Assembly: GCA_016212215.1 (NCBI GenBank)
Contig: JACRGV010000005.1
Span: forward strand, 1,391 to 65,390
DNA: 64,000 bases
Direction: 5' to 3'
Source: Nitrospirota bacterium
GTDB lineage: Bacteria; Nitrospirota; 9FT-COMBO-42-15; HDB-SIOI813
A model generated the notes under the pieces. That model saw nothing but the letters and a program-made list of their open reading frames with translations, was not told the DNA's origin and searched no databases. The position numbers were made by a program, and so were the translations under genes. Within the stretch, counting starts at the first letter, position 1. Every line of letters begins with the position of its first letter. Below are positions 2,462 through 63,986 of the stretch, in pieces.

Positions 2462-3265
2462 GTGATGACAAATAATATAAAACTTCTTATTGAGTACGAT
2501 GGGACGAACTATCACGGCTGGCAGAGGCAGGCAAATCTCCTGACAGTACAGGAGGTGCTTGAAGAGGTACTTGGTCGCATTACAAAACAGACCATTAAGG
2601 TAACCGGGGCCTCCCGTACTGATGCGGGCGTACATGCATTAGGACAGTCCGTAAGTTTTAAGAGCAATCTTCAAATAGATGAAACCTCATGGGTAAAGGC
2701 CATCAACTCATTGCTCCCCCATGACATAAGGATAAAAAAAGCAGAGTATGTGCCTATGGAATTTAATGCAAGATTCAGTGCAAAGGGAAAGACATACCAG
2801 TATGCAATATTGAATGTTGAGCAGATGTCTCCTTTCCTGAGGAACTACGCATGGCACATAAAAAGGCCTCTTGATATATATGCAATGAAGGAGGCTGCAG
2901 GGTATCTCTTGGGTACCCATGATTTTTCTTCTTTCAGGTCATCACAGTGCAGTGCCAAATCTCCGGTCAGGACATTGGAGAATATTGAGGTTGCTATGTT
3001 AATCCCCCCTCCCTTGACTGGAGGGGAAAAGGGGGAGGGTGAGCTACGAGTATTTCCAGATAATCCCCTTATCCTTCTCACCTTTGAGGCACGTTCATTC
3101 CTTCAACACATGGTCAGGAATATTGTGGGGACACTTGTGGAGGTTGGAAGAGGGAGGTTTAAACCTGCAGATGTTAAAAATATTTTAGAGAAAAAAGACC
3201 GTCGTCACGCAGGACAGATTGCCCCTTCGCAGGGATTGTTTCTGGTAAAAATAAAGTACGGGTAA
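2462..3265 (+). CDS. truA: tRNA pseudouridine(38-40) synthase TruA, carrying an in-frame repeat insertion.
   Basis: MMTNNIKLLIEYDGTNYHGWQRQ...RTDAGVHA (catalytic Asp)...FLQHMVRNIVGTLVEVG. The segment MLIPPPLTGGEKGEGELRV has no counterpart in other TruA proteins and is encoded by a GC-hairpin repeat copy. Confidence 0.9.
   Translation: MMTNNIKLLIEYDGTNYHGWQRQANLLTVQEVLEEVLGRITKQTIKVTGASRTDAGVHALGQSVSFKSNLQIDETSWVKAINSLLPHDIRIKKAEYVPMEFNARFSAKGKTYQYAILNVEQMSPFLRNYAWHIKRPLDIYAMKEAAGYLLGTHDFSSFRSSQCSAKSPVRTLENIEVAMLIPPPLTGGEKGEGELRVFPDNPLILLTFEARSFLQHMVRNIVGTLVEVGRGRFKPADVKNILEKKDRRHAGQIAPSQGLFLVKIKYG
3004..3044. repeat. GC-rich palindromic hairpin repeat (CCCTCCC-N-GGGGAGGG family), inserted in-frame inside truA.
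   Basis: cccccctcccttgactggaggggaaaagggggagggtgagc. The same family recurs about 30 times in the window. Confidence 0.8.
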
Positions 3266-3295
3266 GTACCCTCCTTCCGTTAGCCGGGAAAATAA

Positions 3296-3634
3296 TTATT
3301 TTTTCTGTGATACAATCTTTGACAGCCTGCCCTTTTCCCTGAGCTGTTCTATCATTACCTCACGCATCAGCTTACATGCCTGAACCACCTTCAGGTTTGA
3401 AATCCTGTAATAGATATTCACCCCATCCCTGCGGAAGTTGAGTATACCCTTTGCCTTCATAATAGAAAGGTGCTGGGACAGGTTTGCCGGCCTGATATCC
3501 ATCTTCTCAGCAATCTCACCCACTGAAAGCTCTTTATCACCAAGAATACTTATAATCTCAAGCCTCTTTGCATTTGCCATAATCTGACAGATACCCGCAT
3601 GCAGTTCAAAAATATCTTTGTCCATATTTAACAC
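3296..3634 (-). CDS. ArsR/SmtB-family transcriptional regulator.
   Basis: Winged-HTH core ICQIMANAKRLEIISILGDKELSVGEIAEKMDIRPANLSQHLSIMKAKGIL. Confidence 0.8.
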   Translation of the reverse strand: MLNMDKDIFELHAGICQIMANAKRLEIISILGDKELSVGEIAEKMDIRPANLSQHLSIMKAKGILNFRRDGVNIYYRISNLKVVQACKLMREVMIEQLREKGRLSKIVSQKK

Positions 3635-3766
3635 CCTCTGAATAAGTTTCGAAACTATGAAACTACTATACTAATTAAAGATAATGGTGTCAATCATTAG
3701 GCTGTTAACAGTACCTTTTGAAGTTTATACTGAAATCAGCGGCGGCGTTTTATTGTTATTATTATA

Positions 3767-4543
3767 TTATATTGGTGTGTTCATGATTTTTTGTGAGAGT
3801 GTTGATTCCCAGCACTGAAGTGTCTTTATTGCGTTGAATTCAGTAAGGTCAAGGCGGAGGGGGGTTATTGATACCATGTTTTCTTCGATTGCTGAGAAAT
3901 CGCTGTCTTCTGTCTTCTCCCATGAGAGTCTGCTCCCGCCGATCCAGTAATATTTCCGGCCCCTCGGATCTACTTTCTCAACTATCGCATTTTTGTCGTA
4001 TATACGCTTACCCTGACGTGTTATCTTCATCCCTCTTATCTCACTCATATCCAGATTGGGGACATTTACATTAAGTAAGACACCGGCAGGCAATGATTGC
4101 TCTTTGACTAATGCGGCAATAATACATGCAATCCGGGCAGATGTCTCAAACTTATAATCTCCCTCTGCAACCTGTGATACAGCAAATGACGGGACTCCGA
4201 GTAATGTGCCTTCAAATGCTGCGGACACTGTCCCTGAATATGTAACATCATCTCCAAGATTTGCACCCTTATTTATACCCGATACAACAATATCCGGCTT
4301 TGCCGGGAGTATCCCATTGATGGCAAGATTAACACAATCAGTCGGCGTACCGCTTACGCTATAGGTTTTATCAGCAACCTCATCCATTCTCAGAGGCTTG
4401 TGTAATGTGAGTGCATGACTTGCCGCAGTCCTCTCCCTGTCAGGAGCAACAATATACACCTCACCAATGACTCTGAGTGCATCAGCAAGTATGTGAAGCC
4501 CCTTTGAATGTATACCATCGTCGTTAGAAACTAAAATTAGCAT
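3767..4543 (-). CDS. surE: 5'/3'-nucleotidase SurE.
   Basis: N-terminus MLILVSNDDGIHSKGL...; the SurE signature DDG and the overall length match. Confidence 0.9.
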   Translation of the reverse strand: MLILVSNDDGIHSKGLHILADALRVIGEVYIVAPDRERTAASHALTLHKPLRMDEVADKTYSVSGTPTDCVNLAINGILPAKPDIVVSGINKGANLGDDVTYSGTVSAAFEGTLLGVPSFAVSQVAEGDYKFETSARIACIIAALVKEQSLPAGVLLNVNVPNLDMSEIRGMKITRQGKRIYDKNAIVEKVDPRGRKYYWIGGSRLSWEKTEDSDFSAIEENMVSITPLRLDLTEFNAIKTLQCWESTLSQKIMNTPI

Positions 4544-4574
4544 ATTTTTAAAAAATCTCCATCCAAAAATCTCT

Positions 4575-4650
4575 CCGGCGGGGTAAGAAAACCCCGCCTA
4601 TCCAGATATATATCAAGGATAGGTGGGACATTCTTGTCCCACTCATTTTC
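4575..4650. repeat. Hairpin-module repeat element (GGCGGGGTAAGAAAACCCCGCC ... GGATAGGTGGGACATTCTTGTCCC), related to the element at 6311-6527 and to the MITE interior.
   Basis: The modules GCGGGGT..ACCCCGC and GGGACATTCTTGTCCC are shared with the other copy and, in inverted orientation, with the MITE core. Confidence 0.65.
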
Positions 4651-4759
4651 ATCCTTTGTGAGCCTATGCTCATGAATCTTTCATTTAATCATTTGACATT
4701 CATTTGGACTTTGATTTTTGATATTTGGATTTATTTCTCTGTGCCTCTGTGGTTATTAT

Positions 4760-4836
4760 TGGTCGGGGCGAGCCGATTTGAACGGCCGGCCACTCCCACC
4801 CCAAGGGAGTGCGCTACCGGGCTGCGCCACGCCCCG
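4760..4836 (-). tRNA. tRNA-Pro (anticodon GGG).
   Basis: Manual fold of the minus strand. Acceptor CGGGGCG/CGCCCCG, D-stem GCGC/GCGC, anticodon stem CUCCC/GGGAG with loop UUGGGGU (anticodon GGG), T-arm GGCCG-UUCAAAU-CGGCU, discriminator A and an encoded CCA. Confidence 0.75.
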
Positions 4837-4839
4837 AAA

Positions 4840-5798: not shown

Positions 5799-5838
5799 CA
5801 CCCCTCCCCTTAATCCCCTCCCGCAAGGGGAGGGAAAA
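5799..5838. repeat. GC-hairpin repeat copy.
   Basis: cacccctccccttaatcccctcccgcaaggggaggg. Confidence 0.75.
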
Positions 5839-5848
5839 AGTTAGAAAG

Positions 5849-6280
5849 TCAAGGATGCTTCACTGAAATGATCACAGGATTATATTTACCATCTTTAAGA
5901 GCACTTTTATTGTATAACCATATTCCTACATAAAAAATAATCATAAACAATATTCCGGACAGGGCAGCATAAGGGTCTGAACCTGTTACAGCCTTGCCCA
6001 CGAAACTGCCTATAAAGAAACCGATTAGAGGTACCATATACGCAATAAAAGATGCCGTTAAAAAAGTCTTGGACCTCATTGAAACCTCTACCATTTCCCC
6101 AACAGAAGCGCCAAGTTCATTCTTTGCTTCAATAACTACATTTGTATCTGACCCTGACGAGGGCTTGCACAAACTCTTTGATGCACAGCTTCCGCATGAT
6201 GTCCCGCGAACAGCCCTGACCTTCGCCATCCCGTTATGCACCTCAATCACGATGCCTTCTTCTGTCATTCCTTCCTGCAT
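5849..6280 (-). CDS. RseC/MucC-family protein (sigma-E positive regulator / SoxR-reducing system component).
   Basis: N-terminal GIVIEVHNGMAKVRAVRGTSCGSCASKSLC Cys cluster, followed by two hydrophobic helices. Confidence 0.6.
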   Translation of the reverse strand: MQEGMTEEGIVIEVHNGMAKVRAVRGTSCGSCASKSLCKPSSGSDTNVVIEAKNELGASVGEMVEVSMRSKTFLTASFIAYMVPLIGFFIGSFVGKAVTGSDPYAALSGILFMIIFYVGIWLYNKSALKDGKYNPVIISVKHP

Positions 6281-6310: not shown

Positions 6311-6527
6311 CCCTACGGCGGGGTAAGAAAACCCCGCCTACAGCAATTCTCTGTGAATCATATCTCCATTGCTAATACGGGACAAGAATGTCCCGCCTAT
6401 CGCGATAGGCGGGGTTTTCTAACCCCGCTGTAAGAGCATTTGCCCGATATTTCACCGAGAATTGCTGACCCCGCCTATCCATTTCTATGAGGATAGGCGG
6501 GACATTCTTGTCCCGCTGATTTTCTAA
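6311..6527. repeat. Hairpin-module repeat element (second copy of the 4575-4650 type), split by the nested MITE insertion.
   Basis: cggcggggtaagaaaaccccgccta | MITE | tccatttctatgaggataggcgggacattcttgtcccgc. Confidence 0.7.
6341..6467. mobile_element. MITE copy B: 127 bp with the same 17-bp TIRs, flanked by the 9-bp duplication CCCCGCCTA, inserted into another repeat element.
   Basis: Near-identical to copy A (about 3 substitutions). The TSD was read directly: aaaaCCCCGCCTA|cagcaatt...aattgctg|aCCCCGCCTAtcc. Confidence 0.8.
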
Positions 6528-8220: not shown

Positions 8221-8303
8221 GTTATGGGTAACGGGTTACAGGTAATGAGTAAGAAGTATCCCTTCTTGCTTCTTACCTCTAACTTCTAACTTCTTCCTTC
8301 CAG
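8221..8303. repeat. Heptanucleotide arrays in both orientations (GGTTATG/GGTAACG... then CTTCTTG/CTTCTTA/CCTCTAA...).
   Basis: 7-nt periodicity read directly. The two oppositely oriented halves can pair as a long imperfect hairpin, lying between the lysC stop and the cimA start. Confidence 0.7.
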
Positions 8304-9555: not shown

Positions 9556-9987
9556 TTATAAACTATGGTTCTTAAGATTTTTCTGCGAGTAACTACTTTC
9601 CCCTCCCTTGATGGGAGGGGTTAGGGGAGGGTGATTCAAACAATTCTCCCTAATAACTTCTAATACTCCCTCTATGTTTACTAACACTTCATTATTCCAA
9701 AATCTTAAAACCTTAAACCCCTGTGAGCTAAACCATTCGTCTCTTTCCTTATCTTTGTCTATTTCTATTGAATGCTGTCCCCCGTCAACTTCTATTATTA
9801 TTTGTTTTTCATAACAAACAAAATCTACAACATACTTACCAATAGGCTCCTGCCTTCTGAATTTATATCCTTCTAACTGCTTTGCTCTTAAATATTTCCA
9901 TAATACATTTTCTGTATCAGTTAATCTCTTTCTAAGAGTTTTAGCTATATTATTTATTTTGTTCTTAAATGTCGTAGGCACCCCCAC
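9556..9987 (-). CDS. DUF559-family protein (Vsr-like endonuclease fold), flanked on both sides by GC-hairpin repeats.
   Basis: ...YVVDFVCYEKQIIIEVDGGQHS...RDEWFSSQGFKVLRFWNNEV is the DUF559 core. The C-terminal HPPLTPPIKGGES is read from repeat copy 9598-9633. Confidence 0.6.
   Translation of the reverse strand: MGVPTTFKNKINNIAKTLRKRLTDTENVLWKYLRAKQLEGYKFRRQEPIGKYVVDFVCYEKQIIIEVDGGQHSIEIDKDKERDEWFSSQGFKVLRFWNNEVLVNIEGVLEVIRENCLNHPPLTPPIKGGESSYSQKNLKNHSL
9598..9633. repeat. GC-hairpin repeat copy.
   Basis: ccctcccttgatgggaggggttaggggaggg. Confidence 0.75.
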
Positions 9988-10017
9988 CCTACCCCTCCCC
10001 CATCAAGGGGGAGGGAA
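9980..10017. repeat. GC-hairpin repeat copy.
   Basis: cacccccaccctacccctcccccatcaagggggagggaat. Confidence 0.8.
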
Positions 10018-10320: not shown

Positions 10321-10383
10321 TTGTCTTCTCCTATCTTGCTTCTTACTTCTGACTTCTTGCTTCTACCTTCTGCTCACTGCTGC
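10321..10383. repeat. Heptanucleotide tandem array.
   Basis: cttgcttcttacttctgacttcttgcttctaccttctgctcactgc. Confidence 0.7.
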
Positions 10384-11627: not shown

Positions 11628-11696
11628 TTTCCTTCTTTCTTCTTACATCTTACATCTTACATCTTGCTTCTTACTTCTTACTTCTAACTTCTTCCC
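11628..11696. repeat. Heptanucleotide tandem array.
   Basis: tcttacatcttacatcttacatcttgcttcttacttcttacttctaacttctt. Confidence 0.8.
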
Positions 11697-14140: not shown

Positions 14141-14220
14141 TAGCTCACCCCCACCCTGACCCTCCCCCCTCAAGGGGGAGGGAAACTTAGTTCCCTCTCC
14201 CTGAGAGAGAGGGAACTCCC
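14141..14220. repeat. GC-hairpin repeat, long form (atagctcacccccaccctgaccctcccccctcaagggggagggaaa, plus a second hairpin ccctctccctgagagagagggaa).
   Basis: The same about 50-bp unit recurs at 46533, 48141 and 45283. Confidence 0.85.
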
Positions 14221-14227: not shown

Positions 14228-14268
14228 ATCTTACTTCTTGCATCTTTCTTCTTACATCTGCTCAACAC
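14228..14268. repeat. Heptanucleotide tandem array (short).
   Basis: cttacttcttgcatctttcttcttacatctgc. Confidence 0.6.
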
Positions 14269-15441: not shown

Positions 15442-15473
15442 AATATTTCTTTACAAATCCTTTCTATTTTCAT

Positions 15474-15523
15474 CCCCTCACCCTTACCCTCTCCCCTGAG
15501 GGGAGAGGGTAAGGGTGAGGGGG
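15474..15523. repeat. GC-hairpin repeat: a perfect 50-bp palindrome (cccctcacccttaccctctcccc-TGA-ggggagagggtaagggtgagggg).
   Basis: Perfect inverted repeat read directly, 30 bp upstream of the aminotransferase start. Confidence 0.85.
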
Positions 15524-15888
15524 TAAACATAATCTAAGTAGTGAGATAATAAAGATTTTACCTGTTATTGTCAAACAGAAAATCACTTGATTTTGTTACT
15601 ACGGAGTCATTAATTTTACAAGGACAAAATTTGAGGCTTCCTTTCGTAACCTTTTACAATTTTTTTCAAACCCGTAAGGGGAAAGTTGTAACAGTATGTT
15701 TAAAAGTTCGTGCAGATGTTTCTGATTTTGTGTAATCATTTCCGATAAATCAACAACATCTTCATTGGGTTGTTTTTATAAAAAAGTGCTTGAAAATAAT
15801 AGTTCAATTATGTTATTTTTTCTACCTGTAAATTTTCCTTATTATAATTATAATCTAAACAACTGATAGACAAGTCAGGGGGGAGCTA

Positions 15889-16254: not shown

Positions 16255-17490
16255 TACATACTCTCTTATTTCACGGGCAGAGGGTCTGCTGCCCGTTATC
16301 TTACCATTTTCTACAAAAGGCAACAGGATATCGCTGTTTCTGCCGCCGCAATTACAACAAGACAATATAGTATTCTCTTGCGTTTGATCGGAAAACTCCC
16401 GTTGCTCACCCCCACCCTTACCCTCCCCCGTCAATGGGGAGGGAAATTTCGTTGTCTTTAGTTCCATTAAGGGATTAAGAGGTACAATTTCTGATTTATA
16501 ACAGGTATCACACCTCATAACCCTTTTAGAACCTGACATCTTTCCCCGTTTGGCAAGAGGCTTTCCCTCCACTTCCATTATGTCCATTGCAAAATCTATC
16601 ACCTTTGCACTGCTTATCGAAGTCCCAACACCATAAGCATCCACAAAGGGATTTAATTCCGGTATCTTATACTCATCCAGTCCGCCGCTCACATAAAGTT
16701 TCACATGCTTATAACCCCTCAGATCAAGCTCCCACCTTACCTCCTGAAGTATCCTGGGGAAATTACCCCTCCTGCTTGCAGGTGTATCAAGCCTGACACC
16801 ATAGAGTTTATCACCCATTGCCTCAGCAACGGAAAGCACCTCGAACTTTTCATCTCCAAACGTATCCACCAATGCAACCCTTTTTACATGCGGTTCAACG
16901 ACCTCATGGAATGCCTTAGTTGCATCAACAGAATTCCCCATTAATATAATCAGTGCATGAGGCATAGTCCCCATAGGGTCTTCACCGATCATCTCACCGC
17001 TCATCACAACTGCAACACCATCACAACCGCCTATAAAGGCGCTCCGCTCTACCATAGGGGCTATTGCCGGATGCATCCTCCTTGCACCGAAACTTATTAC
17101 ACCTCTACCCTCTGCTGCCTTTTTGCATCTTGCCGCCTTTGTTGCAATACCTGATGCCTGACATAATAAACCGAGTATTGCAGTCTCATAAATACCAAAA
17201 TCCGTATACATACCTTCAATCTCAAGTACCGGTTCATAAGGTCTGAAGAAAGTTCCCTCAGGCATCGAACGGACATTCACTTTCATTCCTTCGAACAGAT
17301 TAAGACATTCATCCAGCCCTGCAAACACGCCCCATTCCCATGTATCAGGAAGGTTTTTGGCAATAAACTCTGCCTTTACCCATTTATCAATACCTTTAGC
17401 CTTTAATATCTTTATTGTCCTGGTAAAATATACATCCGTAATCCTGCCTGCCTTAATATCATCAAAGTCAGCAGTGTATAGTTTAGGCAT
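16222..17490 (-). CDS. pncB: Nicotinate phosphoribosyltransferase, with a C-terminal zinc ribbon interrupted by an in-frame repeat insertion.
   Basis: MPKLYTADFDDIKAGRITDVYF... NAPRTase core. C-terminal RCDTC...[TTKFPSPLTGEGKGGGEQ, repeat-encoded]...CCNCGG. Confidence 0.85.
   Translation of the reverse strand: MPKLYTADFDDIKAGRITDVYFTRTIKILKAKGIDKWVKAEFIAKNLPDTWEWGVFAGLDECLNLFEGMKVNVRSMPEGTFFRPYEPVLEIEGMYTDFGIYETAILGLLCQASGIATKAARCKKAAEGRGVISFGARRMHPAIAPMVERSAFIGGCDGVAVVMSGEMIGEDPMGTMPHALIILMGNSVDATKAFHEVVEPHVKRVALVDTFGDEKFEVLSVAEAMGDKLYGVRLDTPASRRGNFPRILQEVRWELDLRGYKHVKLYVSGGLDEYKIPELNPFVDAYGVGTSISSAKVIDFAMDIMEVEGKPLAKRGKMSGSKRVMRCDTCYKSEIVPLNPLMELKTTKFPSPLTGEGKGGGEQREFSDQTQENTILSCCNCGGRNSDILLPFVENGKITGSRPSAREIREYVLQQLLRFELT
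16404..16448. repeat. GC-hairpin repeat copy inside the pncB coding region.
   Basis: gctcacccccacccttaccctcccccgtcaatggggagggaaa. Confidence 0.8.
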
Positions 17491-17535
17491 CGCCCACCCC
17501 CACCCTACCCCTCCCCCCTCAAGGGGGAGGGAATT
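17491..17535. repeat. GC-hairpin repeat copy.
   Basis: cgcccacccccaccctacccctcccccctcaagggggagggaa. Confidence 0.8.
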
Positions 17536-17546: not shown

Positions 17547-18131
17547 CTAATCACCAATGTCGCCCAGTTTTATTCTTATCGCCCCTGCTGACAACATTTC
17601 TTTGATTGCTTTATCACTATCACCGGCCTTAACATCTACACCTCGTGAAGCATCCTCAAGAAATACAGTCTGAAAGCCTTCTTTTATGGCATCCAGTACT
17701 GTACTTTTCACACAATAGTCTGTTGCCAGCCCGCCGATAAACAGGCGGTCTATATGTCTTTGTTTAAGATATTCAGAAAGGTTGGTATCCTCAAAACCTG
17801 AGTAAGCATCTTTATCTGACAGCGTTCCCTTTGAAATTATTACTGCATTTGTAGGAATTAGAAGTCCATGATGAAACTCCGCCCCATTAGAATCCTGGAT
17901 ACAATGGGGCGGCCATGTCCCGCCATAAGCATTAAATGATATATGATTCTCAGGATGCCAGTCCCTTGTAAGAAATACCGGTAAACCTCTTTCAATAAAC
18001 TTTTTTGTATAGGAATTAAGAACAGCCACGACCTTATCCCCTTCCGACACAGGCAAAGCCCCGCCTGGACAGAAGTCATTCTGTACATCAACGATAATTA
18101 ATGCAGTGTTGTTGGTAATGAGGATATTCAT
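17547..18131 (-). CDS. pncA: Nicotinamidase/pyrazinamidase (isochorismatase family).
   Basis: ALIIVDVQNDFCPGGAL...catalytic Cys in GGLATDYCVKS; adjacent to pncB. Confidence 0.8.
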   Translation of the reverse strand: MNILITNNTALIIVDVQNDFCPGGALPVSEGDKVVAVLNSYTKKFIERGLPVFLTRDWHPENHISFNAYGGTWPPHCIQDSNGAEFHHGLLIPTNAVIISKGTLSDKDAYSGFEDTNLSEYLKQRHIDRLFIGGLATDYCVKSTVLDAIKEGFQTVFLEDASRGVDVKAGDSDKAIKEMLSAGAIRIKLGDIGD

Positions 18132-18143
18132 TGTTCATCCGTT

Positions 18144-18208
18144 ATCTTACTTCTTAATTCTTGCCTCTTGCTTCTACCTTCTACCTTCAGCCTTACTACC
18201 TCTTACCT
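18144..18208. repeat. Heptanucleotide tandem array.
   Basis: cttacttcttaattcttgcctcttgcttctaccttctaccttcagccttactacctcttacc. Confidence 0.75.
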
Positions 18209-20290: not shown

Positions 20291-20404
20291 TTTGGGGGTA
20301 AGGGATTTATCGTTAATAATTAGGACGAATAAATTAATAGGATTTTATATCAAATTTAATTAATAAACAAGTAGGATGAACTATGAATATTTGATGGAAT
20401 AAAT

Positions 20405-20833
20405 CTATAGCTTAATACTTAAATAGGTAGGTGATGTGAACCCTTTTGAAAATGCCTTTGTCATCTGAAACCCCTTATTAACTTGTAAAAGGCGCTCTCC
20501 AATATCTTTATGCAGGATTGTCATTTTACTTTCACATTCTTTTTCATATTCAATTATTTTATTAATGACCCTTTTTATCTTACTTTTAAATTGCACTATA
20601 ATTTCAGTACTGTTTTCAGATAGACAGTGAAGTTCACTCCTGATTATGGATAACTTCTCTACCTCTTCCCTAACTCTTATCTTCTCTGAAATAATATCTT
20701 CCACAAGTCTAAAATCAGTTTCACTTGAGATCGCATCCTTCAATTTAAAACAGATAAATGCAATCTTATTGTAAAGCATTAATTCATTTTCTAAACATAT
20801 TATTATCTCTTTTCCCATATCTTTTGCTGTCAT
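20405..20833 (-). CDS. Hypothetical protein in the fliT position of the fliC-flaG-fliD-fliS operon (putative flagellar chaperone).
   Basis: A 142-aa helical protein translationally coupled to fliS (shared coordinate 20833). Its position suggests a FliT-like role; no motif-level support. Confidence 0.35.
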   Translation of the reverse strand: MTAKDMGKEIIICLENELMLYNKIAFICFKLKDAISSETDFRLVEDIISEKIRVREEVEKLSIIRSELHCLSENSTEIIVQFKSKIKRVINKIIEYEKECESKMTILHKDIGERLLQVNKGFQMTKAFSKGFTSPTYLSIKL

Positions 20834-21258: not shown

Positions 21259-21287
21259 CTGTTTAACCTCCTCAGTTACCGATATGT

Positions 21288-23957: not shown

Positions 23958-23962
23958 AATTA

Positions 23963-24337: not shown

Positions 24338-24363
24338 AGTAAGCCACCCCCTGACTATTTAAA

Positions 24364-24417
24364 AGAAAAAACCCTCCGCCCCCAGATAGTGCATCATAAT
24401 TTTAAGGAGCGGAGGGA
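24364..24417 (-). terminator. Rho-independent terminator downstream of flagellin.
   Basis: mRNA-sense CCCUCCGC-(loop)-GCGGAGGG followed by UUUUUUCUUUU. Confidence 0.6.
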
Positions 24418-24440
24418 ATTTTGTTTAATTAATATTAATT

Positions 24441-46532: not shown

Positions 46533-46579
46533 CATAGCTCACCCCCACCCTGACCCTCCCCCCTCAAGGGGGAGGGAAA
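46533..46579. repeat. GC-hairpin repeat, long form (atctccatagctcacccccaccctgaccctcccccctcaagggggagggaaa).
   Basis: Identical unit to 14141 and 48141. Confidence 0.85.
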
Positions 46580-48140: not shown

Positions 48141-48268
48141 ATAGCTCACCCCCACCCTGACCCTCCCCCCTCAAGGGGGAGGGGATAGATACGCAACGCC
48201 CTATCCATTCAGTTGCTCTTCTGATCTCCCCTCCCCTTGCGGGAGGGGATTATGGGGAGGGGGGGTTA
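48141..48268. repeat. GC-hairpin repeat cluster (long form plus two additional hairpins).
   Basis: atagctcacccccaccctgaccctcccccctcaagggggagggg...tcccctccccttgcgggaggggattatggggaggggggg. Confidence 0.85.
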
Positions 48269-49605: not shown

Positions 49606-49708
49606 TTGCTCACCCCCACTCTAACCCTCCCTCGTCAAGGGGGAGGGAATTTTCGTTTCCATCTGCCCCCCTATCCCCTCCCGTCTTATTAATTAGCGAA
49701 GGGGGAAT
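49606..49708. repeat. GC-hairpin repeat (two hairpins).
   Basis: gctcacccccactctaaccctccctcgtcaagggggagggaat...cccccctatcccctcccgtc...gaagggggaat. Confidence 0.8.
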
Positions 49709-49718
49709 TTTCAGTTGT

Positions 49719-49770
49719 ACTTCTTACTTCTGCCTTTCTTGCTTCTTACTTCTAACTTCTTACTTCTGTT
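49719..49770. repeat. Heptanucleotide tandem array.
   Basis: cttcttacttctgcctttcttgcttcttacttctaacttcttacttctg. Confidence 0.75.
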
Positions 49771-53084: not shown

Positions 53085-53174
53085 CCCACCCTCCCCCTAC
53101 CCCCTCCCGTCAAGGGAGGGGGAATTAAGATAGCAACCTCTCCCCTGGCGGAAGATGGCCCTGGTGAGTGGGTC
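53085..53174. repeat. GC-hairpin repeat (two hairpins).
   Basis: cccaccctccccctaccccctcccgtcaagggagggggaat...cctctcccctggcggaag. Confidence 0.8.
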
Positions 53175-53184
53175 ATTCTTTTTT

Positions 53185-53289
53185 CTTGCATCTTACCTCT
53201 AACTTCTTACCTCTAACATCTTACTTCTTGCATCTTACATCTTACTTCTTACTTCTTGCATCTAACTTCTTACTTCTGACTTCTTACCT
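53185..53289. repeat. Heptanucleotide tandem array, the largest in the window (15 units: CTTGCAT CTTACCT CTAACTT CTTACCT CTAACAT CTTACTT CTTGCAT CTTACAT CTTACTT CTTACTT CTTGCAT CTAACTT CTTACTT CTGACTT CTTACCT).
   Basis: Units read directly. It overlaps the stop codon of the 849-aa GT gene. Confidence 0.9.
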
Positions 53290-55819
53290 CAGGTCTTACA
53301 ATCTTTTTTGCCCCTTCATGGTTAGGTTCGATCTCAAGAACCCTGCGATAAAAAGTGGTCGAATCTTCCACATATCCATTGGATTTAAGCAGTGATGCCA
53401 GCCTGAATATAGCCTCTGCATGCTCAGGATTAGATGAGATGGCCTCACGATATTGATCAAAGGCATCCTGTGGAAAACCCAGTGCCTCCAGCATCAGACC
53501 GCAGTTATATCTTGCGCTTGCATCTCTCCTGTCAAGCTCCAGTGTGCTTGTAAAATATTTTAATGCCTCGACATAGTTATTCTGTTTTGCATAGAGGACA
53601 CCGAGATTGAAATGCGTCCTCTTTCTTGATGAATCAATTACAAGGGATTTTTTCAGCAGCTCCTCAGCACGGAAATAATCCCCTGATGCGGTATAATGAC
53701 TGCCGAGGTCACACATAGATTTAGAATCAAACGGGTTTTCCTGTATCCCCTTCTCCCCCAACTCCCTGTAATATTCAAATTTTTTATTATTATCACGATC
53801 ACTCCTGACGTAACCATAATGATGAACAGGTATATCTGTATTTATAATTGATATACCTAAATTACTCATTGATGGTTCAACGACCTCATGCGATTTTCCT
53901 ATGTACCTTAATCCCTCTTTCCTCCTGAAAAGCCTCGTTAACGGTACCTCTCCATATCCGGGGTAATCTTTACCTTCTTCATAATCATAAGAGTTATGAT
54001 GCCATCCTGTGATTCCACCCTTAAATTCATAATTTCTCAGAATCAGACTATATGCATCTATCCCAGGATGCTTAATAATTTCCCGTATCTTCTTTATATC
54101 CTTTTCAGCAATAACCTCATCTGCATCCAATACAAGTATCCATTCACCGCCTGCATTTTCAAGGCATACATTCCTTGCCGCACTAAAGTCACCTTCCCAG
54201 TTATGATTAATTAGATTTGCGCCAAACCCCTTTGCAATCTCAATAGTACGGTCAGTTGAGCCTGTATCCACAATGATTATTTCATCTACATAACCTTTGA
54301 CACTTTCAAGACATCTGGAAAGATATTCTTCTTCATCCTTAACAATCATGCAGAGGGAGAGGCGTGGTTCAGGCGTAGTTAAACCCATCCCCACCCTAAC
54401 CCTCCCCTTGAAGGGGAGGGAATCTTGTGGAGGGGGCGGCAATTCGACACTTCTTGACTTTCCATCCCCTTGCGGGAGGGCTGCAATTATGTTACTTCCA
54501 AATTCCTCCCCCACTTGCGGGGGGAGGCAGGAGGGGGGGGGATTAGCGGGGGTCTGGTTTGCCTTATCCGTATGCTCAAGCTCCTCTGCCTTTCTAACCA
54601 AGGCATCTCCGGTGACATTGTCTCCGAGCTTCATACTTACATGCCCAAGTCTTTTATATGCATCAGGGAAATCCGGTTTGATTGAAAGGGCCTTTTCATA
54701 ACATTCAATAGCCTTCAGAAAATCAGAAACCTTCTCAAGTAATATTCCGTAATTGAATAAAACAATATAGTGGTCAGGATTCGCTTTTATTGCATTTTCA
54801 TAATAACCCTTTGCCTCATCGAATCTACCCTCTTCATTCAATATGCCGGCAAGATTATTACTTGCACCGACATTTCCTGTTTCAAGTCTTAATGCCTCAA
54901 GATAACATGATTTTGCCTCAGCCTTTTTCCCCAAATTCTCATAAGCTACACCAAGGTTAAAATGTGCATGGGCTGATGACGGGTCAAGCTCTACAGCCTT
55001 CTTTAAGACGGTTTCTGCCTCTCTGAATAATCCCATTTCAATATACTGGGTTCCAAGGTCCCTTTGTGCACGTGCATCCTCAGGATTCAACGCAACCTTT
55101 TTCTCACCGGCCTCCACATATATTTGATTTTTCTGGTCCATACGCCCCTTTTCCAGCATCCTTCCATAATGATGAATGGGAATATCCGTAAGAACGATAA
55201 TGCCGCCTCTATCCGTTATAGAGTACTCAACCACTTCATGTACAACGCCCTGAAAAAGAATCCCGTCTCCCCTGCGGAACAGCCTGACAAGGTATGCAGG
55301 TACATAGCCGGATGCACCAAGTGCTTCAGGACAATCTCTCTCAACACTGTACCAGTTTGCAATCCCGCCATTATCCTGATAATTCCTGAGGACAAAGCGG
55401 TAACCAGTAACTTTTTCGCTCGAAAATACCCCCCCAAGCCCCCCCTTGTTAAGGGGGGGATGTTCGTTATCCTTCAAAATTATCCCCCCCTTTATAAGGG
55501 GGGGCTTGGGGGGGTGATTTTCATCAGTAAGTAATGTCTTAATCCTCTCATGGTCTTTCTTTGCAATAACCTCATCTGCATCCAAAACAAGAATCCAATC
55601 TCCGGATGCATGCTTCAGGGATTCATTCCGTGTCTTACTGAAGTCATTTTCCCATTGATGGAAATAAACTTTTGCCTCAAATTCTTTTGCAATACTAACC
55701 GTATTATCAACTGAACCCGTATCAACAATAATTATCTCATCAACAAGACCCTGCACACTTTCAAGACACCTCTTAATATGTCTTTCCTCATTACGTACAA
55801 TCATGCACAACGAAAGCAT
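53270..55819 (-). CDS. Dual-GT2 glycosyltransferase with TPR repeats (849 aa); two repeat copies inserted in-frame in linkers.
   Basis: GT2 #1 MLSLCMIVRNEERHI...IIVDTGSVDNT...LDADE; GT2 #2 LSLCMIVKDEEEYL...IIVDTGSTDRT...LDADE. Linker segments PPKPPLIKGG...PPLNKGGLGG and LPPQVGEEFG...LPQGDGK...TTPEPR are repeat-encoded. Confidence 0.8.
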   Translation of the reverse strand: MLSLCMIVRNEERHIKRCLESVQGLVDEIIIVDTGSVDNTVSIAKEFEAKVYFHQWENDFSKTRNESLKHASGDWILVLDADEVIAKKDHERIKTLLTDENHPPKPPLIKGGIILKDNEHPPLNKGGLGGVFSSEKVTGYRFVLRNYQDNGGIANWYSVERDCPEALGASGYVPAYLVRLFRRGDGILFQGVVHEVVEYSITDRGGIIVLTDIPIHHYGRMLEKGRMDQKNQIYVEAGEKKVALNPEDARAQRDLGTQYIEMGLFREAETVLKKAVELDPSSAHAHFNLGVAYENLGKKAEAKSCYLEALRLETGNVGASNNLAGILNEEGRFDEAKGYYENAIKANPDHYIVLFNYGILLEKVSDFLKAIECYEKALSIKPDFPDAYKRLGHVSMKLGDNVTGDALVRKAEELEHTDKANQTPANPPPSCLPPQVGEEFGSNIIAALPQGDGKSRSVELPPPPQDSLPFKGRVRVGMGLTTPEPRLSLCMIVKDEEEYLSRCLESVKGYVDEIIIVDTGSTDRTIEIAKGFGANLINHNWEGDFSAARNVCLENAGGEWILVLDADEVIAEKDIKKIREIIKHPGIDAYSLILRNYEFKGGITGWHHNSYDYEEGKDYPGYGEVPLTRLFRRKEGLRYIGKSHEVVEPSMSNLGISIINTDIPVHHYGYVRSDRDNNKKFEYYRELGEKGIQENPFDSKSMCDLGSHYTASGDYFRAEELLKKSLVIDSSRKRTHFNLGVLYAKQNNYVEALKYFTSTLELDRRDASARYNCGLMLEALGFPQDAFDQYREAISSNPEHAEAIFRLASLLKSNGYVEDSTTFYRRVLEIEPNHEGAKKIVRPEVRSQK
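54384..54545. repeat. GC-hairpin repeat cluster (4 hairpins) in-frame inside the 849-aa GT.
   Basis: cccatccccaccctaaccctccccttgaaggggagggaat...tccatccccttgcgggagggc...cctcccccacttgcggggggagg. Confidence 0.85.
55428..55518. repeat. GC-hairpin repeat variant (poly-C/G arms) in-frame inside the 849-aa GT.
   Basis: cccccccaagcccccccttgttaaggggggga...tcccccccctttataagggggggcttggggggg. Confidence 0.8.
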
Positions 55820-57499: not shown

Positions 57500-57591
57500 C
57501 CCCATCCCCACCCTAACCCTCCCCTTGAAGGGGAGGGAATTCTGGGGTAACGACAACCCCATCCCGTCAATTCCATGTAAGGGTGGATTTC
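57500..57591. repeat. GC-hairpin repeat (two hairpins).
   Basis: cccatccccaccctaaccctccccttgaaggggagggaat...ccccatcccgtcaattccatgtaagggtgg. Confidence 0.8.
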
Positions 57592-60486: not shown

Positions 60487-60981
60487 CTATGCCTTTTTAC
60501 AGACCAATTTGCCTGTCTGATAACCCTGTTCAATCTGACCTGTAGGGCGATATACCGGCAGTTCATGGATAAGACGGTTCAGGAATGTTAGAGAAGTTCT
60601 TGTATAGTTCACCGCCCTCTCTGCAAGGATTCCGTTAATCTGATTTATCTCTCTTATGCTGTTTACAAGAGACAAAAGGTTTGAGCGGCATGATTCAAGG
60701 GCCTTCTTATAACGCATTGGGGCGATATTAATTATCATTAATAATGTAAGCGGCCCGGAATGGTATTCATCCTGAATCATCCCTGTTACGTCAACCCGGG
60801 ATTCTTCCAATATCTTTAGGTTTAATATTATGGTCTCCTTATGATTAGCACACTCATGCAGCTTATCTAATGACAGGTCTACCATATACTGCCTCTCAAC
60901 CTGAAGAATACTCAAAAATTCATGGTAAACATCAACCTCTTTTTCAAGTATCTCCAGGAGATTTTCAAAATTCTTATCCAC
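60487..60981 (-). CDS. flgN: FlgN-family flagellar export chaperone.
   Basis: MDKNFENLLEILEKEVDVYHEFLSILQVERQYMV... FlgN-like helical protein lying between flgM and flgK. Confidence 0.6.
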   Translation of the reverse strand: MDKNFENLLEILEKEVDVYHEFLSILQVERQYMVDLSLDKLHECANHKETIILNLKILEESRVDVTGMIQDEYHSGPLTLLMIINIAPMRYKKALESCRSNLLSLVNSIREINQINGILAERAVNYTRTSLTFLNRLIHELPVYRPTGQIEQGYQTGKLVCKKA

Positions 60982-61002
60982 TACAACCCTCTATGTTATT
61001 AA

Positions 61003-61338
61003 CTATTTAATCAGCCTGTCTGCAATGGTTTCTTTTACTAAACCTGATGCAACCGATTCTGCATCAACCCTGTAAGTCCCGTTCTTCACCTGATCCGACA
61101 CCTCTTTAACCTTCTCCTCCCTGATGTCCGGCATTCCCTTAACAGCAGTCTTAATATTGTTAAACTCTTTTGCCCTGTCGGACACTTCAATCCTGTCATC
61201 TGAATACCCCGGCTTATTAACATCATCTGCATCTCCGTCATTTTTACCCTTAACCAGCGAAGTCGTACGAACTACATTTACACCTGTTGCTGCCTGATTC
61301 TCAGGATTTTTTGGGATGTTCTGTCCAATAATTTTCAT
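61003..61338 (-). CDS. flgM: Anti-sigma-28 factor FlgM.
   Basis: C-terminal ...VSDQVKNGTYRVDAESVASGLV is the FlgM sigma-binding region. Confidence 0.75.
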   Translation of the reverse strand: MKIIGQNIPKNPENQAATGVNVVRTTSLVKGKNDGDADDVNKPGYSDDRIEVSDRAKEFNNIKTAVKGMPDIREEKVKEVSDQVKNGTYRVDAESVASGLVKETIADRLIK

Positions 61339-61369
61339 ATAATCCTCCGGATATAGTTAGTTAAATTGC

Positions 61370-61405
61370 CTTTATATCGGCATAAGTACCGGAGATTATT
61401 AAAAC
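61370..61405 (-). promoter_or_regulatory. Candidate sigma-28 promoter upstream of flgM (-10 GCCGATAT perfect; -35 weak).
   Basis: mRNA-sense ...TTTTAATAATCTCCGGTACTTATGCCGATATAAAGG. Confidence 0.4.
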
Positions 61406-61686
61406 TATTTTACTCCTTTATCTTTTACTTCCATTTGCCTGATTAAAAGGTCCGAAAGCCCAAGACCGCCTCTAGCTGCAATACCTTCTGCGATGTTTTC
61501 ATCTATAATAGAATTATAGATATTTTCACTCATCCCTGAATTCAGTAATCCGCTTTTCGGAACAGACTCCCTCATTACCTTCAAAAGGTAAAATGCAAAG
61601 AACGATTCAAACTCTTTAGCCGCCTTCGCAACATCTGTCTTAGATGTTGGAATATTCGTCCCCTGCATTAATTGATCTATTTTCAT
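61405..61686 (-). CDS. Rod-binding protein (FlgJ N-terminal domain only; no muramidase domain).
   Basis: AAKEFESFFAFYLLKVMRESV is the Rod_binding signature. The track ORF's first 19 codons are repeat-derived, so the internal ATG was used. Confidence 0.7.
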   Translation of the reverse strand: MKIDQLMQGTNIPTSKTDVAKAAKEFESFFAFYLLKVMRESVPKSGLLNSGMSENIYNSIIDENIAEGIAARGGLGLSDLLIRQMEVKDKGVK

Positions 61687-61696
61687 GTGAAAATAA

Positions 61697-61817
61697 CCCC
61701 ATCCCCACCCTAACCCTCCCCTTGAAGGGGAGGGAATAAACATAGCACCCTCTCCCCTCTTGCTTGCTCGTCTAATCTCCCCTCCCCTTGCGGGAGGGGA
61801 TTAAGGGGAGGGGGGGC
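61697..61817. repeat. GC-hairpin repeat cluster (3 hairpins).
   Basis: ccccatccccaccctaaccctccccttgaaggggagggaat...ccctctcccctcttg...tcccctccccttgcgggaggggattaaggggaggggggg. Confidence 0.85.
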
Positions 61818-61884
61818 TTCTTACTTCTTGCTTCTAACTTCTTGCTTCTTTTATCTGCTAACTGCTTACTGCTTACTGCTCACT
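61817..61884. repeat. Heptanucleotide tandem array.
   Basis: cttcttacttcttgcttctaacttcttgcttctt...ctgctaactgcttactgcttactgctcac. Confidence 0.75.
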
Positions 61885-62977: not shown

Positions 62978-62993
62978 GATTTCACCTGTAAAA

Positions 62994-63033
62994 CCCCACC
63001 CTCACCCTACCCCTCTCCCTGAGGGAGAGGGAA
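62994..63033. repeat. GC-hairpin repeat copy.
   Basis: ccccaccctcaccctacccctctccctgagggagagggaat. Confidence 0.8.
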
Positions 63034-63040
63034 TCTTAGT

Positions 63041-63090
63041 GTCTAACTTCTTGCTTCTTGTTTCTTGCTTATAATTTCTTCCTTCTAACC
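63041..63090. repeat. Heptanucleotide tandem array.
   Basis: ctaacttcttgcttcttgtttcttgcttataatttcttccttctaacc. Confidence 0.65.
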
Positions 63091-63110
63091 TATGCTAACA
63101 ACCGCCTATG

Positions 63111-63152
63111 CTCACCCTCCCCCTGCCCCCCTCCCGTCAAGGGAGGGGGAAT
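63111..63152. repeat. GC-hairpin repeat copy.
   Basis: ctcaccctccccctgcccccctcccgtcaagggagggggaat. Confidence 0.8.
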
Positions 63153-63188
63153 TCTTGCTTCTGCTAACTATTCACTATTCACTGCCTT

Positions 63189-63986
63189 TTAGAACGGCCA
63201 TATAAAATCAATCACCCTCACAAGCCAGCCTACACGTTGTTTATCGCCGATAACACCGCTTCCTGTATATGTAATCTTTGCATCGGCAATATAAGATGAC
63301 AATATTGTATTTCCGGGGCCTATATCTTCGGGCCTGATTATCCCGTTTATAGAGATTATCTGGGTTTCATTATTTACAACAACTTCTCTTTTACCATCAA
63401 TTACAAGGTTACCGTTAGGCAATACATCAAGGACTTTTGCTGTCATAACAGCAGTGAGCTGGCTGCTCCTTGAGGTAGTCCCTGAACCATCATGTTTTTC
63501 ACTGGTCTCTGCGCCTACTGACCCTTTTGATAATTTGTCTGTCGGTATCCCGAATAATGCAGATAATGAGGTTGAGATACTTGAATCCTTCTCAGTCTTG
63601 GTTGACGCATTCTTATTACCCTTTGAACTCTCTACTATCCGTACTGTAAGGATATCCCCTACACTGTTTGCCCTGAAGTCACTGAAAAGGAATGACTGTG
63701 GTTTATCCTCAGACCAGAGAGAACCGTTGTTTTCATGGCCATTAGAAACCACCCCCCCTCCCCCCCCCTTAACTACAGGGGGGGAATTCTGAATATCCCC
63801 CTGACCCCTCGATTGCTCAACTAATTTCCCATCCCCTTGCGGGAGGGGATTAAACTTAGCACCCTCTCCCCTGGCGGGAGAGGGTCCGGGTGAGGGGGCC
63901 TTATCGTTTTCATTTATCTGCCCGGCATATACAGTATTCATGCTTATTACTGCAATAAATAATAGTACTCCAATGATGTATTTCAT
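63189..63986 (-). CDS. flgH: Flagellar L-ring protein FlgH with an about 50-aa in-frame repeat-encoded insertion.
   Basis: C-terminal ...VMTAKVLDVLPNGNLVIDGKREVVVNNETQIISINGIIRPEDIGPGNTILSSYIADAKITYTGSG is canonical FlgH. The N-proximal PSPGPSPARGEGAKFNPLPQGDGK...PPVVKGGGGG is read from repeat 63752-63900. Confidence 0.85.
   Translation of the reverse strand: MKYIIGVLLFIAVISMNTVYAGQINENDKAPSPGPSPARGEGAKFNPLPQGDGKLVEQSRGQGDIQNSPPVVKGGGGGVVSNGHENNGSLWSEDKPQSFLFSDFRANSVGDILTVRIVESSKGNKNASTKTEKDSSISTSLSALFGIPTDKLSKGSVGAETSEKHDGSGTTSRSSQLTAVMTAKVLDVLPNGNLVIDGKREVVVNNETQIISINGIIRPEDIGPGNTILSSYIADAKITYTGSGVIGDKQRVGWLVRVIDFIWPF
63752..63900. repeat. GC-hairpin repeat cluster (4 hairpins, about 150 bp, a multiple of 3) in-frame inside flgH.
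   Basis: ccccccctcccccccccttaactacagggggggaat...tcccatccccttgcgggaggggatt...ccctctcccctggcgggagagggtccgggtgaggggg. Confidence 0.85.

Follow-up and report, generated by a model that had tools for sequence, protein, structure and literature searches.

A 64,000-nucleotide stretch of a Nitrospirota metagenome-assembled genome (MAG; contig JACRGV010000005.1; hereafter the window) carries many short GC-rich palindromic repeats, which almost certainly belong to the BoxC/PIT/TMECO family of intrastrand-triplex motifs. At least eight genes of the window carry units of the repeat in frame, and we regard these with high confidence as genuine in-frame insertions. Two units in inverted orientation bracket a small gene for a DUF559 protein, a Vsr-like PD-(D/E)XK endonuclease. 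Taken as a whole, the explanation that we favour as likely is that the repeats are BoxC-family units, that the copies inside genes are in-frame survivors, and that the DUF559 cassette is their source. All window counts below refer to this 64-kb stretch, and the gene starts in it are predicted ones.

Anatomy and family of the repeat

An initial annotation of the window had described about 30 copies of a two-arm hairpin, alone or in clusters of two to four, against an AT-rich background. The background GC content is indeed about 41%, with nearly all genes on the minus strand, and the copy number holds. The exact core CCCTCCCC-N3-6-GGGGAGGG matched the window five times and 100 shuffled sequences not once, a relaxed scan for stems of seven or more pairs, with a left arm rich in C and a right arm rich in G, returned 34 C-arm/G-arm hairpins against 0-1 in shuffles, and a strict three-arm scan (8-nt arms, at most one mismatch per arm pair) returned 29 units, of which the plus strand has 10 and the minus strand 19, while 10 shuffled sequences gave none. 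Grouping of the repeats gave about 20 copies of a 40-nt consensus, CACCCCCACCC-TNA-CCCTCCCCC-NTCAA-GGGGGAGGG-AAT. The two-arm description itself has to be replaced by a three-arm one, as almost all hairpins have a third, G-rich arm. A unit is about 32-37 nt long and consists, on its G-rich strand, of a C arm, a loop of 3-8 nt, the complementary G arm, a spacer of 2-5 nt and a second G arm.

This third arm is the mirror of the G arm, with T or A facing each A (for example GGGGGAGGG-TTA-GGGTGGGGG). For non-symmetric arms, perfect mirrors outnumbered perfect direct copies by 14:1 in the window, by 54:1 in the 80 DUF559 loci described below and by 129:0 in loci from other genomes (n = 120, among the matches listed). 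As read from the sequence, the mirror third arm is the rule for a purine-motif intrastrand triplex. A switch between alternative hairpins, in which the third arm would pair with the C arm, would require the third arm to repeat the G arm directly; such repetition is all but absent, which excludes so simple a design. The G-rich strand of each unit also has four G-tracts, and competition between the hairpin and a G-quadruplex was considered for that reason. A G-quadruplex requires neither mirror symmetry nor T facing A, and at the sequence level the mirror test favours the published triplex rule over it.

Units occur singly, in inverted pairs and in three-unit composites of up to 156 nt, and one forms a perfect 24-bp palindrome (15472-15524); solitary copies and clusters were both as first described, with clusters of two to three units rather than two to four. 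The inverted pairs fold as an outer stem around two hairpins. Pairs that join a TTA-spacer unit to a CCG-type-spacer unit start at 31206/31251, 48150/48227, 53090/53136, 54389/54505, 55428/55484, 61703/61778 and 63751/63862. Rfam at gathering thresholds returned no family anywhere in the window and the sole find of ARAGORN was a tRNA-Pro at 4760-4836, so the repeats are neither a known RNA family nor derived from tRNA.

The published TMECO pattern, 5'-CCCTCNCCC N3-6 GGGNGAGGG N3 GGGNGAGGG-3' (Holder et al. 2015, PMC4666352), which as a family pattern tolerates one mismatch, has four exact matches in the window, one of them within flgH, and none in shuffles. The window segment 15465-15530, which holds the palindromic unit, matches 5358 of 5426 complete E. 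coli genomes at a median of 18 places each, with up to 92% identity over 49 nt, and aligns base for base with the fimH-gntP copy of E. coli. The two sets of repeats have the same three-arm architecture and mirror rule, the arms CCCTCTCCC / GGGAGAGGG / GGGTGAGGG and the CCCTCCCCC variant, TTA and CCG/TCC spacer types, and inverted A+B pairs. Earlier work on BoxC and the triplex motif in E. coli is said to go back to Bachellier in the 1990s and to Hoyne and Maher in 2000. The TMECO motif forms a triplex in vitro and has been tied to genomic instability; 3610 copies were counted in 262 proteobacterial genomes, and the 23 copies of E. coli K-12, described as 'always' intergenic, have TTA (type A) or CCG (type B) spacers and often stand in inverted A+B pairs (PMC4666352). 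In the same study no mobility function or mobility gene was found near the E. coli copies, and PIT elements in E. coli had no promoter, terminator or regulatory effect (PMC4666352).

The window repeats also differ from the E. coli family in several respects. Their host is a member of the Nitrospirota, whereas the TMECO pattern was counted in Proteobacteria (262 genomes) and BoxC has otherwise been reported from Synechocystis. Their density is 0.45 units/kb, against 0.005/kb in E. coli K-12 (a difference of about 90-fold) and about 0.03/kb in the richest genome reported. Eleven of the 29 strict units, and at least four decayed ones, lie within open reading frames (ORFs), compared with none in E. 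coli K-12; strict intergenic location is a property of the E. coli copies and lies outside the sequence definition. A subfamily in the window has a tail that carries a putative ribosome-binding site, and the association with DUF559 was not reported for the E. coli family in the 2015 paper.

A search with a 20-nt type A pattern, one genome per species, gave at least 120 loci from about 10 phyla. Those listed include Dehalococcoidia, Desulfobacterota, Alpha-, Beta- and Gammaproteobacteria, Nitrospirota, Planctomycetota, Armatimonadota, Actinomycetota and Schekmanbacteria, among others, with Aminobacter, Microvirga, Undibacterium and Noviherbaspirillum as isolates. In nearly all the matches listed the hairpin extends downstream of the 20-nt pattern, often with the same loop. 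The striking repeats of this genome are thereby placed in a known family, and BoxC is extended from Proteobacteria and Cyanobacteria to many phyla.

In-frame units in conserved genes

The intragenic copies of the window, with the intergenic partner of the ddhC copy, are as follows.

3005-3038, plus strand: three-arm unit in truA, sense; the insert spans about 2996-3052 and encodes IPPPLTGGEKGEGEL
16410-16443, minus strand: type A unit in pncB, in frame between the two halves of the zinc knuckle; encodes KFPSPLTGEGKGGGEQ
28259-28291, plus strand: poly-C/poly-G variant unit in the gene for a 1377-aa TPR-glycosyltransferase, in frame and antisense, in the linker between the TPR and GT2 domains
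45283-45366, minus strand: two decayed units in the gene for a thiamine pyrophosphate (TPP)-dependent enzyme, in frame in the linker between the N-terminal and central domains
48150-48260, no single strand: inverted pair of a type A unit (48150-48183, minus) and a type B unit (48227-48260, plus), the latter at the C-terminal tail and stop region of ddhC
54389-54537, no single strand: three-unit composite in the gene for an 849-aa glycosyltransferase, in frame between the TPR region and the second GT2 domain, with units at 54389-54420 (minus), 54455-54480 (plus, degenerate) and 54505-54537 (plus)
55428-55515, no single strand: inverted pair of poly-C/poly-G units in the same gene, in frame within the first GT2 domain
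63747-63902, no single strand: three-unit composite in flgH, 156 nt (52 codons), in frame at the junction of signal peptide and conserved core, with units at 63751-63784 (minus), 63822-63849 (plus, degenerate) and 63862-63895 (plus, exact TMECO match)

One further intragenic copy encodes the C-terminal tail of the DUF559 ORF (9556-9987). The eight genic sites proposed in the initial annotation all proved to lie in uninterrupted ORFs where it had placed them, and the peptides it quoted were recovered. Its reading of them as in-frame insertions into conserved genes at permissive sites is borne out by gaps in structure alignments, by empty sites in relatives and by the inserted DNA, which matches intergenic copies of the window (repeat families D15, D16 and D19).

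Residues 6-178 and 178-246 of E. coli TruA align to residues 6-178 and 198-266 of the window protein, leaving a clean gap of 19 aa. In an alignment of 25 relatives, distant orthologues of 244 aa have no insert at this hairpin turn, and within the Nitrospirota clade the same turn holds 0-60 aa of varied, repeat-derived sequence; the copy in one relative with 88% nucleotide identity (L121) has lost its C arm and the remainder has decayed. The AlphaFold model of the window TruA (mean pLDDT 81) has a single segment below 50, residues 183-198, between the strands 171-180 and 203-210, so that mapping onto structure places the insert in the only low-confidence loop. PncB shows a clean 33-aa gap between residues 348 and 349 of the P. 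furiosus structure 2i14, within the zinc knuckle. Most relatives (76% identity) have no insert there; in another, with a BLASTP identity of 86% (90% over aligned positions), the same unit is present and itself harbours a second repeat that is unrelated to it. NCBI annotation calls the same intact ORFs, and the window proteins are 100% identical to its TruA (MBI5191870.1) and PncB (MBI5191886.1).

The remaining sites gave comparable pictures. In FlgH a relative with 92% amino acid identity (P0121/L125) has exactly 156 nt fewer and the insert is absent; typical relatives measure 200-220 aa, against 265 here, and no target-site duplication was seen in the flanks of the flgH insert. The two decayed units of the TPP-dependent enzyme account for about 32 extra residues, seen as a gap against a solved structure. 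The site in the first GT2 domain of the 849-aa glycosyltransferase (55428-55515) is empty in the protein's own paralogous second module. DdhC aligns to 3bcx from M10 to residue 450, its last 22 residues and stop codon being supplied by the unit at 48227-48260, and the alignment identifies M10 as the predicted true start. Orthologue alignments of TruA, PncB and FlgH, the check proposed at the outset, thus yielded clean gaps or insert-free relatives in each case.

The repeat is strongly depleted from coding sequence (11 of 29 strict units in ORFs, against a coding density of 87%; P = 9e-10), and each unit leaves one to three of the three frames per strand free of stops, mostly two. Depletion and stop-free frames fit indiscriminate insertion followed by strong filtering, and lend support to the earlier idea of selection for frame and length. 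Units would land regardless of frame and selection would purge most genic copies; those that survive would have a length that is a multiple of three and a stop-free frame, would sit in a loop, an inter-domain linker or a terminus, and would add a disordered Pro/Gly/Glu-rich peptide and then decay. In-frame units were also found in other phyla, in MnmE of a Brocadiaceae MAG (L113, ~5900-6150), a PMT_2 glycosyltransferase of Ca. Aquidulcis (L077, 3803-3838) and an Fe-S/CCG oxidoreductase of a betaproteobacterium (L107, 7134-7232), which indicates that protein remodelling by BoxC-type repeats is a cross-phylum phenomenon. The range of BoxC, so far 'always intergenic', accordingly widens to include frequent in-frame copies within essential and flagellar genes.

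Rickettsia palindromic elements (RPEs) are 100-150 bp long and are not known outside AT-rich obligate intracellular Rickettsiales. The window units, by contrast, are 32-37 nt long, GC-rich, three-armed, spread across phyla and hosted here by a member of the Nitrospirota, and are set apart from RPEs by this description. The likeness to the elements of Ogata et al. (2000) is that short palindromic repeats sit in frame in housekeeping genes at surface-exposed places and add a peptide to a protein that is apparently functional, and that no associated transposase is known. The parallel drawn in the initial annotation therefore stands as far as in-frame insertion with preservation of the ORF is concerned, and so does its view that the element family is another one, now positively identified as BoxC/PIT/TMECO. 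The type of phenomenon is already known: besides the Rickettsia elements, in-frame insertions of repetitive extragenic palindromic (REP) sequences have been reported outside Rickettsia, including one in truA of Stenotrophomonas and copies in truB (Di Nocera et al. 2013, PMC3733652). The BoxC units represent a second, independent and far more widespread example of what RPEs do. The initial annotation had missed the third arm, the known cross-phylum family, these earlier reports of in-frame REPs, and the DUF559 gene bracketed by units in the window.

A second widespread GC-rich repeat, with the peptides ACPERSRRG, LRQAQDDR and VMVSLSNH, occupies the same permissive loops of relatives; it was seen at ~11040-11100 of L126 (pncB) and in the proteins P0006 and P0242, and in one case is nested in the pncB unit. 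These sites therefore accept several repeat families. Three neighbouring genes (25747-29880, 29877-31160 and 53270-55819) consist of paralogous GT2 and TPR modules (263-nt repeats, 62-71% identical). They belong to a flagellin-glycosylation or sugar-biosynthesis region that adjoins the flagellar genes, and their modules gave the internal empty-site comparison.

The DUF559 cassette and its proposed part in the spread of the repeat

The gene bracketed by units is carried by the minus strand, and its cassette has three parts.

9556-9987, minus strand: ORF of 143 aa, DUF559 (Vsr-like PD-(D/E)XK endonuclease, Pfam PF04480), candidate autonomous partner of the repeats
9600-9631, plus strand: downstream (right) inverted terminal unit with type B arms CCCCTCCC/GGGAGGGG/GGGGAGGG, antisense to the DUF559 gene
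9982-10015, minus strand: upstream (left) terminal unit with type A arms, sense to the DUF559 gene

The ORF matches Pfam PF04480 with E = 1.3e-42 over profile positions 2-107 of 109, and is 45-57% identical to homologues from other phyla (49% to E. coli YcjD). Its C-terminal tail, HPPLTPPIKGGE, is encoded by the right-hand unit. Between the left unit and the solo copy at 17495-17534 identity reaches 98%, and the left and right ends of the cassette correspond to the two main solo types of the window, A and B. Of the window ORFs scanned against Pfam, none showed a transposase or integrase domain; the flagellar and histidine-kinase block (17547-25559) was read from the annotation of the syntenic contig L126 only, and truA and ddhC from PDB matches.

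Five DUF559 homologues were present at the repeat loci of other genomes (at least 120 in all), among the matches listed, and four of these lay 22-157 nt from a repeat. The full bracketed cassette occurs in Kiloniellaceae, Dehalococcoidia and a Pseudomonadota MAG (L070, L072 and L081), and an incomplete Schekmanbacteria locus (L106) has the upstream unit only. A metagenome scan with a DUF559 alignment, in which a unit was counted if it lay no more than 150 nt from the gene, gave 80 loci. A strict unit stood upstream in 58 of 78 (57 of 68 units sense) and downstream in 51 of 77 (49 of 58 units antisense). Unit density beside the gene was 5.8 and 5.0/kb, compared with 0.12/kb more than 300 nt away, a 45-fold excess (Poisson P ~1e-156), and about 70 of the 80 loci had no other unit within 3 kb. 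The upstream unit lies 10-30 nt before the DUF559 start codon. Within cassette units the three arms co-vary (for example CCTTCCCCC / GGGGGAAGG / GGGATGGGGG) and left and right units differ; third arms point toward the gene in about 85% of cases, the outward minority being found in Deinococcus, L194 and L195.

Other bacteria provide further cases. A plasmid of Deinococcus psychrotolerans (L208, 285-790) carries a DUF559 gene with inverted ends of about 50 nt that contain units, in the minority outward arrangement, between paaD and paaZ of a phenylacetate operon; in the related Deinococcus sp. QL22 (L210) paaD and paaZ are adjacent without the cassette, which makes a filled/empty pair. An Azospirillum DUF559 copy has an upstream unit. 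In E. coli K-12 a decayed unit sits at the stop codon of ycjD, the only DUF559 gene of that strain examined, and 168 nt downstream comes TMECO no. 9 (Table 1 of Holder et al.; 1,351,204-1,351,239 of NC_000913.3). Across 1,351,204-1,351,420, the decayed ycjD unit is followed by a duplicated fragment of the 3' end of ycjD and then by TMECO no. 9, an arrangement suggestive of a vestigial second cassette end. In Caulobacter, a DUF559 protein damages DNA in vivo (PMC12907096). Carriage by plasmids or phages was considered as the route of DUF559 spread and rejected as too rare: among 72,556 plasmid records, 45 carried the gene (most of them megaplasmids or chromids), and so did 3 phage records. No link between DUF559 and BoxC was found in the open-access literature searched, and the association appears to be new.

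From these observations, and from the conservation of the cassette across phyla, we propose a model in which the DUF559 cassette would be the autonomous parent and the solo units its non-autonomous derivatives. The nuclease would recognise or nick the folded repeat, and solo units would be copied in trans to new sites by repair synthesis or template switching. That DUF559 is causally involved in the spread of the repeat is a proposition to which we give slightly less than even credence. Our fullest proposal is more tentative: BoxC/PIT/TMECO elements may be the terminal inverted repeats, and the non-autonomous offspring, of a selfish cassette whose sole gene encodes a DUF559 nicking endonuclease, a nuclease-driven counterpart of the REPtron, which would have crossed at least 10 bacterial phyla, remodelled proteins (the TruA, PncB, FlgH and MnmE inserts) and supplied operon ribosome-binding sites.

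Known mobile repeats offer two points of comparison. REPs and REPtrons are likewise short GC-rich palindromes in high copy number, lie mostly between co-directional genes as singles and inverted dimers, include a proposed mobilising unit with a small gene between two inverted copies, and occasionally sit in frame in ORFs, including truA and truB in other species. They differ in that the bracketed gene encodes a Y1 HUH transposase rather than a PD-(D/E)XK Vsr-like nuclease, in that REP families are species-specific whereas the window sequence is nearly the same across phyla, and in that the window family has an extra mirror arm. A tag at one end like the GTAG (or CGTC) of REPs appears not to be general: [A/G]TAGC precedes some window copies, and the flanks of 129 copies from other genomes have no such tag. 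Miniature inverted-repeat transposable elements (Correia/NEMIS, Nezha, the Coxiella QMITEs) are also short non-autonomous repeats with inverted ends that lie in or near genes and alter proteins or provide expression signals. Unlike these, the window family shows no target-site duplication (at 32 DUF559 cassettes, the flgH insert and the pncB upstream unit), has a single structured arm set instead of two terminal inverted repeats around a core, and has a candidate parent that encodes a nuclease rather than a DDE transposase.

Several points weigh against the cassette as the source of the repeats. Neither a target-site duplication nor a conserved cut site was seen at 32 DUF559 cassettes, and we know of no way in which a PD-(D/E)XK nuclease alone could move DNA to non-allelic sites. 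Only about 4% of the type A genome matches listed adjoin a DUF559 gene, so the model has to invoke action in trans. The query behind the 80 cassettes was made up mostly of repeat-associated genes, to which these 80 are the nearest relatives, and the 74% and 66% with upstream and downstream units hold for this subfamily rather than for DUF559 proteins as a whole. In the syntenic relative L126, 16 kb contain no strict unit, which implies that repeat copy number changes fast. PIT elements in E. coli, moreover, were without promoter or terminator activity (PMC4666352).

The repeats might instead be cis-elements of the host, each either a stabilising hairpin joined to a ribosome-binding site rich in G or an element of DNA structure, which selection and gene conversion would maintain and homogenise. 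DUF559 would then be a small passenger gene that borrows them as expression signals without contributing to their spread, and the genic copies would be accidents. The positions of the intergenic units speak for this: 14 of 17 strict ones are co-oriented with genes, six gene starts follow a third arm by 21-22 nt with GGAG in the tail, a unit at pncB stands in place of a relative's ribosome-binding site, and the units upstream of DUF559 also lie 10-30 nt before a start codon. Such a role leaves unexplained the near-identical 40-nt sequences in about 10 phyla, the copies within coding regions, the inverted downstream unit of 66% of DUF559 cassettes and the large differences in copy number between close relatives (L126; PMC4666352), and in E. 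coli PIT elements acted neither as promoters nor as terminators and had no regulatory influence (PMC4666352); we consider it unlikely. The order of events could also have been the reverse, with the repeats first and DUF559 a homing-type parasite that cuts the repeat or repeat pair and is copied in, the repeat being spread by another agent. Most repeats do lie away from DUF559, and the outward-facing minority (Deinococcus, L194 and L195) resembles an ordinary inverted pair with a gene lodged in its spacer. For the majority of the 80 loci, however, the two flanking units are the sole ones within 3 kb; the absence of further units from about 70 loci indicates that units travel with the DUF559 gene, unlike abundant targets. 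The two resident solo types, in addition, match the left and right ends of the resident cassette. We regard a homing origin as rather doubtful.

Two other accounts fare less well. Ordinary REP elements could be moved by a RAYT (an IS200/IS605-like tyrosine transposase) encoded elsewhere in a genome that was seen for 64 kb only; the [A/G]TAGC in front of several copies is reminiscent of the GTAG tag of REPs, and REPs in ORFs are known in some species (PMC3733652). Yet the window ORFs scanned against Pfam yielded no Y1 transposase domain (17547-25559 via the L126 annotation only), the flanks of 129 copies from other genomes have no such tag, REPs lack a mirror third arm, the gene bracketed by inverted units is DUF559 and not a RAYT, and near the E. 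coli copies, too, mobility genes were not found (PMC4666352). We rate this account as improbable. The 'inserts' might finally be no insertions at all: they could be linkers of low complexity inherited from an ancestor, or errors in the assembly or binning of the metagenome. This view can point to the MAG origin of the window, to how common Pro/Gly-rich linkers are and to the variability of the TruA loop throughout the clade. Against this, the genic inserts consist of the three-arm repeat that also stands between genes, and the one in flgH contains an exact TMECO match; the flgH insert is absent from relatives with 92% amino acid identity; the truA and pncB inserts are common to independent assemblies (L122 and L126); NCBI annotation calls the same intact ORFs; and the repeat family is present in isolates including E. 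coli K-12. We find such an explanation scarcely credible.

On the explanation favoured here, DUF559 becomes a concrete, testable candidate for the spread or maintenance of BoxC/triplex motifs, for some 30 years an orphan family, and the presence of ycjD beside a BoxC copy makes the idea accessible to genetics and biochemistry in a model organism. Should the nuclease indeed recognise the folded repeat, a non-B DNA structure would be tied to a dedicated enzyme and the genomic instability reported for these sites would be explained.

Intergenic units, gene starts and other repeats

The other units of the window lie between genes.

5802-5835, minus strand: unit between two convergent genes
14149-14182, minus strand: type A unit, with the homoserine dehydrogenase ATG 21 nt past the third arm
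15476-15520, no single strand: fully palindromic double unit with a 24-bp stem, exact TMECO match on both strands, 92% identical to E. coli BoxC
17498-17531, minus strand: type A unit in the gap between the isochorismatase stop and the pncB ATG, which is 7 nt off; the orthologous site of L126 is empty
31206-31282, no single strand: inverted pair of a type A' unit (31206-31237, minus) and a TCC-loop unit (31251-31282, plus), an outer stem with two hairpins
31344-31375, minus strand: solo intergenic unit
33338-33409, minus strand: intergenic type A unit (33338-33371) followed by a degenerate hairpin (33385-33409)
46543-46576, minus strand: type A unit with a GGAG-bearing tail; the GTG start of the next gene is 21 nt past the third arm
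49611-49650, minus strand: slightly degenerate type A unit upstream of ddhC, whose predicted true ATG (M10) is 21 nt past the third arm
53090-53170, no single strand: unit at 53090-53122 (minus) with a decayed partner at 53136-53170; the ATG of the next gene is 22 nt past the third arm
57506-57537, minus strand: type A' unit upstream of fliW
61703-61811, no single strand: inverted A'+B pair, intergenic, downstream of flgI; the same composite occurs in deltaproteobacterial MAGs
63000-63031, minus strand: exact-TMECO unit, with the flgI ATG 22 nt past the third arm
63116-63149, minus strand: solo unit just downstream of the flgH stop

Co-orientation with genes was seen for 14 of the 17 strict intergenic units, where the palindrome at 15476-15520 is counted once per orientation. 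Six genes, including the one behind the degenerate copy at 49611-49650, start 21-22 nt past the third arm, in a conserved tail, GTGAGCTATGGAGAT, that contains GGAG; among the units concerned, that at 48150-48183 spans the putative ribosome-binding region of a NeuB-like gene, with the ATG 21 nt on. Because of this fixed spacing and the GGAG tail, the intergenic unit probably acts as a portable hairpin plus ribosome-binding site. At pncB the start lies 7 nt past the third arm. In the syntenic relative L126 (81-86% nucleotide identity over 10 kb), the isochorismatase stop and the pncB ATG are just 7 nt apart, and the window unit takes the place of the relative's putative ribosome-binding site; no target-site duplication was seen to flank this unit.

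Where the third arm contains GTG (14154, 48155, 49619 and 9987), mechanical ORF calls begin inside the repeat and gain a false N-terminus (VGVS...), the likely true starts lying 21-27 nt downstream, as the 3bcx alignment confirms for ddhC. For the annotation of MAG proteomes this means that units give rise to spurious GTG starts, to extended C-termini and to odd stretches rich in Pro, Gly and Glu.

Other repeats accompany the units. Tandem heptamer arrays, (CTTCTTA)n on the plus strand and (TAAGAAG)n in gene sense, occupy at least nine intergenic regions, often beside units (8262-8300, 10334-10371, 11632-11693, 14228-14259, 18171-18201, 49718-49767, 53183-53287, 61816-61884 and 63042-63088). 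In the longest the heptamer is repeated 15 times, and this array runs over the final codons and the stop of the 849-aa glycosyltransferase gene. A contig of a relative (L125) ends in the same array, and the arrays resemble the STRR heptamers of cyanobacteria. A 127-nt repeat is present in two copies, 1451-1577 and 6341-6467, which are 98% identical and contain G-first hairpins (GGCGGGG...CCCCGCC); such hairpins, found also at 4577-4598 and 6317-6338, form a family distinct from the C-first units. Between flgN and the A'+B pair lie about 700 nt (60981-61700) in which no ORF reaches 120 aa. A short ORF (MKIDQLMQGTNIPT...) starts 16 nt past the unit at 61703-61734 and may be a small flagellar gene that has escaped annotation.

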